From an uncultured bacterium (lineage in GTDB: Bacteria; Poribacteria; WGA-4E; WGA-3G): a DNA stretch of 64,000 nucleotides. The translations under genes and the position numbers were made by a program. The stretch spans positions 123 through 64,122 of the forward strand of contig CAZGAW010000009.1 of the NCBI GenBank assembly GCA_964523645.1. The letters run 5' to 3'. The notes beneath the pieces were generated by a model. The model saw nothing but the letters and a program-made list of their open reading frames with translations. It ran no database searches and had not been told where the DNA came from. Within the stretch, counting starts at the first letter, position 1, and each line of letters begins with the position of its first letter. Positions 6,106 to 37,450 of this stretch are shown in pieces.

Positions 6106-6864
6106 ATGAGAACCTATTGTGCAAGTACGCTCCCATTCTCCACTTTTCCTTTGACGGAGTTTGCTCGCGAGTTATCCCAAGGAGTCGTATCCGCTATTGA
6201 ACTCGCACAACCTCATTATTCGGACGTAGCAGCCGAAACGATCGCTGAACTTCGGGAAGCGACCGGACTCCATTTCAAATCTATGCTGAGCACGGTGGGA
6301 GTTGACGCACCAGACGGACTAGAAGCGTTAATCGAAATTCTCGACACTGCCCAAAGGCTCTCTATTCCACTGGTCAGCATCGCAAGTGGTGGAAATGAAG
6401 ATGCCACCCCTCGTGAGATTGAAACGATTATTGAGCGTCTCAAAACGGTCACTGAAGAAGCCGCGGCTCGTAATCTAAACCTTATGCTCTACGCGCACGA
6501 GGGGAGTATGGCTTACAACCTTGAACGCACGCAGCAAATCCTCAAGGCAATCCCCGCTGACAACTTCGGTCTTTACTACAGTCCGTTTCACTTTCATCGC
6601 GGCGGAGATGACCCAGTTGTCGCCTTACGAACCTTGTCCGAGCGGTTAACCAGTGTTTATTTCAACTGCGGTGTCGATTCAAAGACAGGCAGCGAGCCGT
6701 TTTGGGCACCAGAGATGGATTTTCACGCCATCTGTCAGGAGATAGATCGTGTCGGCTACACTGATGAGATTATGCTTATCTATCTCGGATTGAAAGCGGA
6801 AACCCCGCAACCGATTATTGAGGGTGTCTCAAATGCGCGAACGAAGTTAGAAACCTATTTTTAA
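6106..6864 (+). CDS. TIM-barrel sugar phosphate isomerase/epimerase-like protein
   Basis: 252-aa ORF with weak similarity in pattern to its neighbours (LMLYAHEGS, FHFHRGG). Confidence 0.45.
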   Translation: MRTYCASTLPFSTFPLTEFARELSQGVVSAIELAQPHYSDVAAETIAELREATGLHFKSMLSTVGVDAPDGLEALIEILDTAQRLSIPLVSIASGGNEDATPREIETIIERLKTVTEEAAARNLNLMLYAHEGSMAYNLERTQQILKAIPADNFGLYYSPFHFHRGGDDPVVALRTLSERLTSVYFNCGVDSKTGSEPFWAPEMDFHAICQEIDRVGYTDEIMLIYLGLKAETPQPIIEGVSNARTKLETYF

Positions 6865-6889
6865 TTGATTCAGCCGCAAATCGTGTTCT

Positions 6890-8131
6890 TTACGAACCTT
6901 TCAATTCCCCTAATAGATTCGTTATCTCCGTGTGAATCTGTGCTTCAACCGCAGGCTCCAACGCTAACCGATAGGGACCACTGAGCGCATGGTTCCGGGG
7001 TCCCGCTTCATAGCCTGCTTTCAGCCCCAACTCGTAAGCCGCTCGGGTCGCAATATAGACCTCACTGCCGTTTGTGTAACCAAAAACGAAGGTGTGTGAG
7101 AACGGCGAGGTTTCGTCAGCAAAGCGTTGGTACTCCGAAAAGAGTTCATGCGATACGGACAGGAAACAGAGTGCATCGCCAACCGCAAACGCGCTTATCG
7201 GGAAGGGTAAAGCGCGCTTCTCGCCGCTCTTAGCGACTTCCAACAGAGCAACATAGCGGTCATCATCGGGGAATTCTTCGATTAACTGCTCGCATTCCGC
7301 GACAGAAGGCGGATCCCGGAACGGCAACTTCACAAGCTTTGAACACGCCTTAAGGGGTGCAACAGGGATATCTTTTGCAGTCTTTAACGCTTGGTGCGTC
7401 GCAAACGCGAGCGTGAATCCAGCGACATCGCACGCATCGAAACCGCCTCGCAACGGATAGCCGTTGATGTCTGCGGCGCAACCTTGCGCGAAGAGCAGAA
7501 CGCTTTTCGGCTTCAGATCCAAGAAATTACGGAGATGTTCAACGGCATAGCCGGGGAAATCCGCCCCCATCTCCTCGCTCGACCAGTGGACAATCACCGG
7601 ATGCGCGGCATGCGAGAACAGTACCGCGATGACCTCTCCATCTATATCGTAAGCCCCTAACACGTCAACCCACGGCACAACGGAACCTTCAGGGTTAGGT
7701 GCCATGACAATATACCCCTCGTCGTTCATTACGCGACGGTTATAACCGATTTGGACAGGGGCACGTCCTGAGCGCAATGTTGCGGGTTCAAGCCCATCTA
7801 CTGCATCCTTCACCAACTCGGCAAGGCACGTCGCCAACCACGCTTCGGATTCCTCAGTTATCCACCGTCCATCAACACCCGGCGCGTTGTGCGTATGGCT
7901 ACAGTTAATGACGACATGCGCTGGCGGTATGCCTGTAGCCTCCTGGATTGCTTCAAGTAGCACTCTGTTGTATTGCAGTGAAAACTGCCCGTAGTCGGCG
8001 GTCACAATAGCGAGTTGTGTTTCACCATCGGCAAGCACCAACGCGCGTGCATACAATTCAGCGTAAACCTCTGGTCTGTCCTTTATGGAGGTAATCACAG
8101 TCTCTGCTGCACCTGCCATGAGGGTATCCAT
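6890..8131 (-). CDS. Neutral/alkaline ceramidase-like N-terminal domain protein
   Basis: ORF 6890..8164; the likely start is MDTLMAG at 8131, after AAGGAG. YARALVLADG...LAIVTAD and CSHTHNAPG resemble the ceramidase N-terminal signature. Confidence 0.45.
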   Translation of the reverse strand: MDTLMAGAAETVITSIKDRPEVYAELYARALVLADGETQLAIVTADYGQFSLQYNRVLLEAIQEATGIPPAHVVINCSHTHNAPGVDGRWITEESEAWLATCLAELVKDAVDGLEPATLRSGRAPVQIGYNRRVMNDEGYIVMAPNPEGSVVPWVDVLGAYDIDGEVIAVLFSHAAHPVIVHWSSEEMGADFPGYAVEHLRNFLDLKPKSVLLFAQGCAADINGYPLRGGFDACDVAGFTLAFATHQALKTAKDIPVAPLKACSKLVKLPFRDPPSVAECEQLIEEFPDDDRYVALLEVAKSGEKRALPFPISAFAVGDALCFLSVSHELFSEYQRFADETSPFSHTFVFGYTNGSEVYIATRAAYELGLKAGYEAGPRNHALSGPYRLALEPAVEAQIHTEITNLLGELKGS

Positions 8132-35452: not shown

Positions 35453-35940
35453 CTACACTTCACCTGCTTCTCTTAACGCGTAAGCAATAAGCGATTCGTC
35501 CAGATACATCCGTTTTTCTTGCAATAGAATTAAAAGCGGCTTGATTGCATCAATCAAGCCGTTTTCTTTTCCTTCTAACAAAATACCAACTGTGCCTTTG
35601 AATAATAATCCCATTTTTGAGGCTACTTGTCGCGCCTTTTTTCATCAATAATGACGAGACATGCCTCGTGTTCCTTTGCGAGTGCTAACACAGCGGCTTC
35701 GCCAGAATCGAGTCTATCGTCAGCCAATACGCTTTCTGGATCTGGCACATCAATAACTTTAATCCACGGTGCATTGTCGAGGGCATCTCGGCGAGATTTC
35801 TTTTCGATTCCCAAAAACTCCTTTTCGACCTCTCGTGGAATCCACACCTCCGTATAGAGATCACGCAACAGAGAAAGGAGGTCCAAGTGCCAAAGGTAAA
35901 CGAGTGGACTGTTATTACTGATGACGGGTCTTTCGGGCAT
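35453..35940 (-). pseudogene. DUF3368 (PIN-like) toxin gene interrupted by a frameshift in an A6 run
   Basis: Frame 1 reads ...SPLVYLWHLDLLSLLRDLY...AAVLALAKEHEACLVIIDEK and stops at 35623. The adjacent frame continues KARQVASKMGLLFKGTVGILLEGKENGLIDAIKPLL...REAGEV to 35453. The switch lies at the T6 run at 35637..35642 (plus strand). Confidence 0.65.
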
Positions 35941-37339
35941 TCTCAAGTTCCTCTTGGAGATCTTCAGCTGTACCAAAGAGAGAAAGCCCGTAATCCCCCA
36001 TCAGATACCAGAACTCTTCGCGCGACACACCGGCAAGACGGGCAGCAAGGCCACTGCTCAATTCTTCATTTTCGTAATACTTCATCGCCAGCGCGACACG
36101 CGTTTCCTTATCAATTTCAAACGGTTCTTGCTGTGGAGTCAACAGATCTACAATGTCTTCTGGCAATTTGACACTTGTTTTCTGTTCAAACACCTCGATA
36201 CTATCGTATGTATTATGAAACACCTCAGCGATATTCATGCCTTGGAGTATAGCAGCAATCAAATCCCGTTGTGCTTCCTCCCATTTTCCGATGCGCAGCC
36301 ACGCTTCACCCCGCGTATAGTAAAATTCAACGACTTTTGGCTTCAGGATTATTGATTCAGTATAATCAGCAATTGCCTTATCCATTTCGCCTTTGTAGCG
36401 ATACGCGGTGCCACGGCTGGCATAAGCCTCGGCAAAATCGGATTTAAATTCTATCGCTTTAGTATAATCTGCAATAGCAAGTTCATAGTCCCCCATTGTG
36501 CCATAAGTAGCACCTCGATTGCTATATGCTTCAGTATAATCAGGTTTGAGTTCTATTGCTCTGTTATAGTTTTTGATGGCGCGGTTAAACTCACCTTTGC
36601 CATTGTAAGCGTTACCTCGATTGCTGTATGCCTCGGCAAAATCGGGTTTAAGGAGTATCGCTTTAGTACAGTCCTCAATAGCATAGTTAACTTCGCCTTT
36701 ATTCTCGTAAGCTACACTGCGATTGTGATAGACTTCAGCAAGATTTGGGTTCAGTTCAATCGCCCTGTTATAGTCTTCGATAGCACGATCAACCGCGCCT
36801 TTTTGGCTGTAAACCACACCGCGATTGTTATAAGCTTCAGCATAATTAGGTTTGAGTTCTATTGCTTTGGTATAGTTTTTAATGGAATTTTCAAAGTTTC
36901 CTTGCTCACTATAAACAATACCCCGATTGTAGTAAGGCTCGGCATAGTTATTATTGAGTTGTATCGCCCTATTAAAGTCATTGATAGCACGACCGAAATC
37001 AACTTCGTTCTTGTAGGCTACACCACGATTGTTATAGCCCTCAGCAAGATTTGGGTTCAGTTCAATTGCTTTGGTATAATCTTTGATGGCACTGCTATAT
37101 TTCCCTTTACTATGGTAGACAATTCCGCGATTGTAATAGGTGCTGGCATAATCCGGAGCCAGTTCAATTGCCCTGCTAAAGTTGTCAATAGCAGAACCGT
37201 ACTCGCTGTTTTTAGCATAAGCGATGCCTCGGGTGTTGTGTACGTCGGCACTATCTGGTTCGGCGGATAATGCTTTGTCGGCGTAATCGAAACTGAAGAT
37301 ATAAGGGGCATGAGCGATCCCTTGATTCAACGCTTGCAT
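35915..37339 (-). CDS. TPR-repeat protein (about 10 x 34-aa repeats) fused to a C-terminal UPF0175-family antitoxin-like domain
   Basis: Repeats follow A.A/EAYxNRGxxYxxxGxxxxAIxDYxKAIELxP. The last 70 aa or so, ETRVALAMKYYENEELSSGLAARLAGVSREEFWYLMGDYGLSLF, match the UPF0175 pattern. The gene overlaps the DUF3368 start by about 26 nt. Confidence 0.65.
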   Translation of the reverse strand: MQALNQGIAHAPYIFSFDYADKALSAEPDSADVHNTRGIAYAKNSEYGSAIDNFSRAIELAPDYASTYYNRGIVYHSKGKYSSAIKDYTKAIELNPNLAEGYNNRGVAYKNEVDFGRAINDFNRAIQLNNNYAEPYYNRGIVYSEQGNFENSIKNYTKAIELKPNYAEAYNNRGVVYSQKGAVDRAIEDYNRAIELNPNLAEVYHNRSVAYENKGEVNYAIEDCTKAILLKPDFAEAYSNRGNAYNGKGEFNRAIKNYNRAIELKPDYTEAYSNRGATYGTMGDYELAIADYTKAIEFKSDFAEAYASRGTAYRYKGEMDKAIADYTESIILKPKVVEFYYTRGEAWLRIGKWEEAQRDLIAAILQGMNIAEVFHNTYDSIEVFEQKTSVKLPEDIVDLLTPQQEPFEIDKETRVALAMKYYENEELSSGLAARLAGVSREEFWYLMGDYGLSLFGTAEDLQEELENARKTRHQ

Positions 37340-37450
37340 CACTTTCTCCTCCACAACGCGGGTTACTTGAGGGTAATGATAACATGTTCAATTAGTAGAT
37401 GTCAAGCAAAAAGCCGAAAACGAAATAATCCAAATCACTCGCAAAATCCG

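Follow-up and report, generated by a model that had tools for sequence, protein, structure and literature searches.

The window analysed here is a stretch of 64,000 nucleotides (nt) from an uncultured bacterium of the Candidatus Poribacteria (GenBank assembly GCA_964523645.1, contig CAZGAW010000009.1). On its minus strand it carries a two-gene cassette: a large protein made of tetratricopeptide repeats (TPR) and ending in an antitoxin-type UPF0175 domain is followed by an overlapping toxin gene of the COG2405/DUF3368 type, predicted to have a PIN fold. The reading frame of the toxin is broken at a run of six adenines. A preliminary description of this DNA had offered three readings of the break: a decaying toxin that leaves a TPR-antitoxin behind, a toxin controlled by slippage, or an error of assembly or sequencing. 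The analysis presented here favors the first of them. The toxin appears to have been really, recently and repeatedly inactivated in this lineage, with retention of the TPR-UPF0175 fusion, a reading to which a probability of roughly 0.7 is assigned. The features on which the argument depends are the following:

35915..37339, minus strand: TPR-UPF0175 fusion gene, 474 amino acids (aa) plus stop
36332..37249, minus strand: nine canonical 34-residue TPR units (TPR_1, register layout, 102-nt DNA period)
36230..36331, minus strand: divergent tenth TPR unit or 'cap' (34-aa register layout), conserved across the family
36164..36229, minus strand: three-helix linker after the cap; cap and linker form a module conserved across the family
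35939..36163, minus strand: UPF0175 (COG2886) antitoxin-type domain, PF03683, also matched by the PADLOC PDC-S70 small-partner models
to 35918, minus strand: C-terminal helix after the UPF0175 domain
35623..35940, minus strand: toxin 5′ piece, ATG 35940, 105 codons, TAG 35623..35625
35637..35642, minus strand: A6 run and frame break point (T6 on the plus strand); A7 or A8 in other strains
35453..35641, minus strand: toxin 3′ piece in the -1 frame, residues 102-162 (DUF3368 region), stop 35453..35455
35808..35828, minus strand: 21-nt stretch flanked by 8-nt direct repeats TCGAAAAG; missing from two other strains
35644..35646, minus strand: codon for Asp99 of the IIDE motif, an invariant residue; replaced by Asn in a further strain (L141)

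The TPR-UPF0175 Fusion Gene

The fusion gene starts at ATG 37339, which is preceded by the Shine-Dalgarno sequence GGAGGAG. Its product has 474 aa, not the 475 first given, and the same length was found in independent gene calls on identical contigs. This product was seen on contigs retrieved through the toxin piece, not by a look-up of its own; exact look-ups of the proteins starting at GTG 37342 (475 aa) or GTG 37354 (479 aa) gave no match. The protein opens with a 30-residue head without signal-peptide character. It continues with the repeat array, on which the Pfam model TPR_1 scores 285 bits in nine stretches, so that the nine canonical units and the divergent cap agree with the earlier count of about ten. 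The alignment of the cap-linker module contains invariant W, D, F, FE, and P positions, and this part was modelled with a predicted local distance difference test (pLDDT) of about 79-94.

The last ~75 residues correspond to UPF0175, as had been proposed. The match to PF03683 reaches 60.8 bits (cut-off 27.9) and covers profile positions 2-75 of 75; the C-terminal 149 aa by themselves reach 63.3 bits. None of the 34 conserved columns is violated in this end of the protein. The size is not that of the family, whose stand-alone members usually have ~80-110 aa. When the profile of the C-terminal part was compared with solved structures, only TPR proteins were retrieved, and its structure model gave no significant fold match. 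Taken together, the domain assignments describe the product of gene 1 as a predicted cytoplasmic protein composed of a TPR array, a cap-linker module, and a C-terminal UPF0175 domain.

The Toxin Gene and Its Frame Break

The toxin ATG at 35940 lies inside the end of the fusion gene, giving an overlap of 26 nt, the value estimated previously. Residues 1-101 of the 5′ piece match the core of a PIN domain (strands 1-4), the last four residues being out of frame, and the piece scores 84 bits with the PADLOC PDC-S70 toxin model PDLC05071. The remaining 61 homologous codons are found in the -1 frame at 35456..35638, and the change from one frame to the other falls exactly on the A6 run, where the split had already been located. 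The 3′ piece keeps the conserved residues and matches DUF3368 (PF11848) with 46.9 bits against a cut-off of 27.3; it has no ribosome-binding site of its own. Thus, the profile searches suggested in the preliminary description place both partners above their cut-offs. In all 21 related loci the toxin is one continuous open reading frame (ORF) of 162-165 aa. The broken gene gives instead a product of 105 aa, which is not the single frame of ~160 aa of a COG2405/DUF3368 PIN toxin.

The fold of the toxin was modelled on an intact relative, 77% identical to this copy, and the model has a PIN fold with a pLDDT of 92.5. Foldseek assigned it a probability of 1.0 to VapC4 (5h4g), VapC20, VapBC15, and other PIN chains, with a template modelling (TM) score of up to 0.70; the sequence profile of the toxin had no match among solved structures. 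According to this model, gene 2 in the relatives is predicted to encode a 162-aa PIN-fold nuclease. The strands of its sheet are formed by residues 6-8, 32-35, 60-63, 95-97, and 114-115, and E41, E81, and D99 are invariant in the family. The truncated toxin stops past the IIDE motif, near residue 101 and just beyond the fourth beta-strand, so that strand 5 and the four C-terminal helices are missing.

Alleles of the Toxin in the Population

The reality of the A6 run was judged from assembled contigs, by looking up the exact product in independent assemblies. The exact 105-aa product was present on 6 contigs, including Logan SRR8304783, SRR8304770, and SRR22586457 and the European Nucleotide Archive (ENA) assembly ERZ23495034, and all four retrieved contigs that carry it contain A6. 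Over 2-4.8 kb, the three Logan contigs show 100% identity to the window. The ERZ23495034 contig, with an overall identity of 97.4%, differs in its SodC 3′ allele. A6 is found in a total of five assemblies, which come from at least three accession series, were produced by different pipelines, and include one diverged strain. A search of metagenome contigs of the Joint Genome Institute (JGI) for the exact DNA pattern across the run, with A6 or one extra base, gave no match.

Other lesions became visible when the search with the toxin 5′ piece turned up near-identical proteins of odd length. In Logan SRR8304769 the run is A8, the sole difference from the window in 2040 nt. The ERZ23495175 contig has A7, which is in frame, together with a 21-nt deletion that removes EFLGIEK, including the family-invariant E41/F42. 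The ERZ23491266 contig combines this same deletion with A6 and with a GAT to AAT change at the invariant Asp99 (D99N). Apart from D99N, the toxin gene shows no substitution in these contigs, and no fully intact toxin allele of the lineage was present among those found. The fusion gene, on the other hand, is intact in every full-length population copy, the only differences being K333K, D379G, S389R, and G448R. Sets of A6, A8, A7-plus-deletion, and D99N contigs of this kind point to several independent knock-outs of the toxin, with at least four different lesions in the lineage, to an ancestral run of A7, and to at least three changes in run length. The idea of a decaying toxin beside a preserved TPR-antitoxin is thus supported by a recurrent A6, by multiple lesions, and by an intact fusion.

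The inactivation is probably recent. The toxin has 3 violations of columns conserved at ≥90%, the family mean being 2.3 ± 1.9, and its identity relative to that of its partner falls just 0.5-1.3 standard deviations (SD) below the family trend, so that neither test of relaxed selection gives a detectable signal. The run itself is not conserved. It is interrupted in 20 of the 21 relatives, which read GAR AAG AAG or similar, and the two closest intact relatives read GAA AAG AAA and GAA AAG AAG at the site; the toxin is intact in a syntenic sister lineage with 94% nucleotide identity, which reads GAA AAG AAA. Given these interruptions in the closest intact relatives, the run is best regarded as a lineage-specific accident. 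A synonymous AAG to AAA change in this lineage created the ancestral A7, and the loss of one A then produced the inherited A6 and the broken PIN gene seen here. The polymorphism of the run is that expected of a hot spot in a gene that is no longer protected by selection.

One sponge sample, ERZ23495034, contains both the broken A6 allele (L138) and the sister lineage mentioned above (L142, intact toxin, syntenic, 94% DNA identity). Therefore, related strains with and without a working toxin coexist.

The Cassette in the Poribacteria

All 78 genome loci that share the cap-plus-UPF0175 end belong to the Candidatus Poribacteria, which are sponge symbionts. In the 21 related loci, the toxin is always accompanied by a large protein of about 262 to 1301 aa that has UPF0175 at its end; this gene is located directly upstream on the same strand and, apart from one outlier of 130 nt, at distances ranging from an 11-nt gap to a 29-nt overlap. 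The cassette is syntenic in many species of the genus, where its neighbors are an enolase-superfamily gene (96-99% protein identity) and a SodC-like gene, and the TPR gene at this position ranges from about 215 to 1005 aa. Identity of the toxins to the copy in the window is 62-78% across the family pairs compared, and the identities of antitoxin end and toxin rise together across 63 pairs.

A census of species-representative genomes gave 81 further distinct TPR-UPF0175 genes, of 111-1346 aa. The toxin beside them is intact in 60 cases, broken in 11 (internal deletions, truncations, a frameshift, and in-frame stops), and absent in 10. The phylum-wide search with the toxin was not used for this census, as its stop counts mix internal and terminal stops. 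Judged from these genomes, about a quarter of the cassettes of the phylum have lost the toxin likewise. The 34 conserved columns of the cap, linker, and UPF0175 domain are kept equally well in the three classes. Taking into account the knock-outs within the lineage and the same outcome in a quarter of the cassettes, it can be concluded that the TPR-UPF0175 half can outlive its toxin. An N-terminal TIR_2 domain is found in 8 of the 81 genes (in one paralogue as two copies) and an FRG domain in 2. The toxin is intact for all ten, which are not phylogenetically independent.

In a library of 1.84 billion proteins, UPF0175 proteins outside the close family have mostly 65-160 aa, a few being longer (up to 365 aa); the closest matches are mostly longer and have the domain at the C-terminus. 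A TPR-antitoxin fusion is consequently unusual for UPF0175 in general, as previously stated, but in the Poribacteria it is the rule.

The cassette differs from its surroundings at the protein level. Compared with a same-length orthologue, it has a ratio of nonsynonymous to synonymous substitution rates (dN/dS) of about 0.2, the value of the neighboring enolase-family gene being 0.018. The notion of a 'hypervariable cassette' was rejected at the DNA level, where the cassette has 74-78% identity to orthologous loci and the flanks 79-84%. In a comparison with the locus L123, the region 35456..36331 (cap-UPF0175 end and toxin) had a dS of 0.42-0.65, against 1.65 for the TPR array and 1.10 for the enolase-type gene. 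A more recent exchange between lineages, or constraint on synonymous sites, are both possible explanations of this low value.

Alternative Explanations of the Frame Break

The most serious alternative is phase variation, in which replication slippage would toggle the toxin between an in-frame A7 and the out-of-frame A6 and A8, so that the population keeps both states. Three run lengths on almost identical backgrounds, with at least three length changes, are what such a switch would produce. Moreover, the operon contains no other homopolymer of 6 or more, the A run and the 21-nt deletion are its two indel-variable sites, and the frame downstream is undamaged. However, 6-8 A are short for a contingency tract, and 20 of 21 relatives lack the run, as do both of the closest intact ones. 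No in-frame allele was found on the undeleted haplotype among 6-7 contigs. The sole A7 allele also lacks the invariant E41/F42, and another allele adds D99N, for which reason the variation looks like an accumulation of knock-outs. With respect to known homopolymer contingency loci and to the -1 frameshift sites of the dnaX and insertion sequence (IS) type (A AAA AAG), the likeness is that a strain-variable A run sets the frame. The differences are that the run here is short (6-8), lineage-specific, and accompanied by other knock-out lesions; a long, maintained tract with a functional ON product is not found. Overall, phase variation is unlikely. Of the earlier proposal of slippage control there remains the length polymorphism of the run (A6, A7, and A8), with no sign of an evolved switch or a programmed frameshift.

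Programmed recoding is still less probable. A tRNA-Lys slipping by -1 on A-AAA before a rare AGG, or slippage of the RNA polymerase, would yield a little full-length toxin, and the gene would then be functional but attenuated. The slip would re-pair perfectly and restore exactly the family consensus DEKKARQ, that is, the ancestral protein, in which the site resembles those of the dnaX/IS type. In addition, AGG is the rarest Arg codon of the genome (3.9 per 1000 codons, 6.8% of Arg codons), and the 3′ frame is fully preserved. Unlike the known sites, however, the run is not in slippery-heptamer register, the 0 frame being GAA AAA AGG with no X XXY YYZ heptamer in frame, and no stimulatory structure follows it (fold z = -0.14). 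A6 is also shorter than the runs known for efficient transcriptional slippage. Furthermore, no relative uses a frameshift, the gene being continuous in 21 of 21 loci and the toxin intact in 60 of the 81 census cassettes, and neither A8 nor the further lesions of the sister strains could be rescued by recoding. On these grounds, recoding is very improbable.

Finally, a homopolymer error of sequencing or assembly in a gene intact in the organism, which the position of the break exactly in a homopolymer of an otherwise undamaged gene and the state of this metagenome-assembled genome (MAG; 169 contigs, 85% complete) might suggest, is the least credible explanation and is refuted as far as contigs can show. 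The same A6 recurs across five assemblies including a diverged strain, and non-homopolymer lesions affect the same gene on the same background in other samples. Moreover, frame-break signatures are not generally enriched at homopolymers in this genome, their frequency being 0.83% at A/T runs ≥6 and 0.71% at control positions.

It is important to note that several observations weigh against the favored explanation. The position of the first catalytic Asp of PIN domains is occupied by Asn here and in most members of the family, Asp being found only in a divergent clade. The toxicity of COG2405 proteins and its neutralization by UPF0175 are predictions of the literature (PMC5499597), and PDC-S70 is a candidate defense system of PADLOC that is unvalidated (PMC12988326). 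As the MAG is 85% complete, an intact cognate toxin could be encoded elsewhere in the genome. The MAG itself may have been built from one of the identical Logan runs, for which reason at least three, not five, observations of A6 are truly independent. The evidence consists of contigs, and in-frame minority alleles within a sample may exist. The gene shows no decay besides the frameshift, as would likewise be expected if low-level slippage kept it useful. Lastly, the census loci were found through their conserved C-terminal motifs, so that decayed antitoxin genes would be missed.

Comparison with Known Systems

UPF0175 has been reported only next to COG2405, and COG2886-COG2405 is a predicted type II toxin-antitoxin pair (PMC5499597). 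According to the model matches, this predicted pair corresponds to the PADLOC candidate PDC-S70. The cassette of the window resembles it in that both domains score above curated cut-offs, the toxin of the intact relative reaching 153 bits with the PDC-S70 toxin models. The gene order is also that of the pair, with the antitoxin-type gene first, on the same strand, and with an overlap of the translationally coupling kind. The differences are that the antitoxin-type domain forms the last ~80 residues of a 474-aa TPR protein instead of a free protein of ~85 aa, that TIR or FRG domains are added in some paralogues, and that the PIN gene is broken in this copy.

A second system that invites comparison is the TPR-GreA/B-C-PIN conflict system with its variable N-terminal effector (Kaur, Iyer, Burroughs, Aravind, 2021, eLife; PMC8195603; PF20698). 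Both have an optional N-terminal effector (including TIR), a TPR array, a small adaptor, and a PIN nuclease, and they share fast evolution and enrichment in bacteria with complex lifestyles (PMC8195603). In contrast, the Poribacterial cassette has UPF0175 in the place of GreA/B-C, for which there is no match, and its PIN domain belongs to the COG2405 clade and is encoded by a separate, overlapping gene. The N-terminal part of the toxin matches PF20698 weakly, with 25.7 and 22.4 bits, below the cut-off of 27.8. Because of this sub-threshold match, the missing GreA/B-C, and the separate PIN gene, the cassette should be considered an analogue and not a member of that system.

Regarding VapBC, the toxin has the PIN fold (Foldseek probability 1.0) and its gene is overlapped by that of an upstream partner. 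It departs from VapBC by the lack of a sequence-level match to solved structures and by the Asn that replaces the first catalytic Asp in most members, and its partner is a UPF0175 domain fused to TPR, not a VapB-type ribbon-helix-helix (RHH) or AbrB protein.

No paper describing a TPR-UPF0175 fusion was found in the full-text literature searched, and the Poribacteria-wide TPR-UPF0175 variant of this known kind of toxin-antitoxin system is undescribed. From its domains and distribution, the cassette can be defined as a putative Poribacteria-specific two-gene system built on a UPF0175/COG2405-PIN toxin-antitoxin chassis.

Proposed Mechanism and Implications

In intact cassettes, the UPF0175 domain and the C-terminal helix that follows it would keep the PIN domain inactive, as expected from type II logic and from the grammar of the family. 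The TPR array would bind a protein, acting as a sensor or as a scaffold, and TIR and FRG would be additional effectors in some paralogues. In the window just the sensor/antitoxin half is left, and it would either have a role independent of the toxin or merely not have decayed yet. An antitoxin joined to a large, fast-changing protein-binding array suggests how a nuclease could be activated by a protein ligand, through a simple mechanism that can be tested.

The population-level pattern of toxin knock-outs is new and testable. It amounts to a natural experiment, with wild strains that carry several independent knock-outs of the toxin and none in the fusion partner, and the survival of TPR-UPF0175 is relevant to the question of whether such "antitoxins" have independent functions. 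As the break is real, this copy should be annotated as a pseudogene and not silently repaired.

A more far-reaching version of the proposal can also be formulated. The TPR-cap-UPF0175 proteins of the Poribacteria would be NTPase-less immune or conflict sensors derived from a toxin-antitoxin chassis, whose TPR array reads a phage or sponge-host protein and gates the PIN domain (plus TIR or FRG in some paralogues). Selection would have favored the loss of PIN time and again, for instance if the host always contains the trigger. If this were true, four independent lesions without a neutral change in the toxin gene would be a footprint of selection, and the sensor half would have its own function as a decoy, as a regulator, or as an antidote against incoming cassettes. 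This version is speculative and, as a whole, rather doubtful.

Other Features of the Locus and of Related Genes

Two further features of the operon are listed below:

37376..37405, minus strand: sigma-70-like promoter, TTGACA-18-TATCAT with TG extension, 11 of 12 positions, 37 nt before the start codon
35537..35561, minus strand: hairpin with a perfect 11-bp stem and CTTTTAATT after it, located in the toxin 3′ piece; resembles an intrinsic terminator

The promoter is a consensus match alone, and the regional number of such sites is not above shuffled expectation; no inverted repeat that could serve as an operator was found in the promoter region. The stem of the hairpin has the same sequence in most of the 21 relatives despite a DNA divergence of ~25%, and it is lost, without compensatory changes, in one distant clade. 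On the minus strand there is no terminator-like site 3′ of the toxin stop, and the hairpin may be the real terminator of the operon or an attenuator.

Elsewhere in the genome, five further TPR proteins (C53, C26, C5, C18, and C4) carry the cap module with 33-47% identity and no UPF0175. A canonical pair of small UPF0175 and DUF3368 genes is located at C45:7858..8579, and a third UPF0175-like frame at C10:13516..13641. Cross-protection by the C45 pair was considered and is unlikely: its toxin is 30% identical, and its UPF0175 is undetectable with the domain described here. By sequence comparison, this pair is evidently too distant to be the partner of TPR-UPF0175.

Several relatives of the cassette show peculiarities of their own. 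In the upstream proteins of L041, L043, L045, and P0001, the cap-linker module (AWLR..W..A..D...FH..Y.S...FE....LP.DI..LLT) also occurs in the middle of the protein, with a second TPR array after it; it seems that entire 'array plus cap' blocks have been duplicated in tandem. At the syntenic locus of another species (L065/L037), the upstream frame is open for 483 codons and its first ATG leaves 111 aa, so that the gene has either another start codon or a damaged 5′ end. P0017 (589 aa, ENA) is the reverse of the case in the window: it contains a frame change inside UPF0175 that leads to read-through into the toxin frame and to one TPR...PIN polypeptide with the toxin part intact; this fused frame is either real or an assembly error. 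Finally, the toxins of L085 and L107 (about 6435..6923) have a TGA at the codon of the invariant Trp33 (GAG GTG TGA ATT CCA) in frames that are otherwise intact. These two toxins are paralogous and just 64% identical (73% at the DNA level), and the shared TGA could be a coincidence, a parallel knock-out, or a leaky UGA read as Trp.

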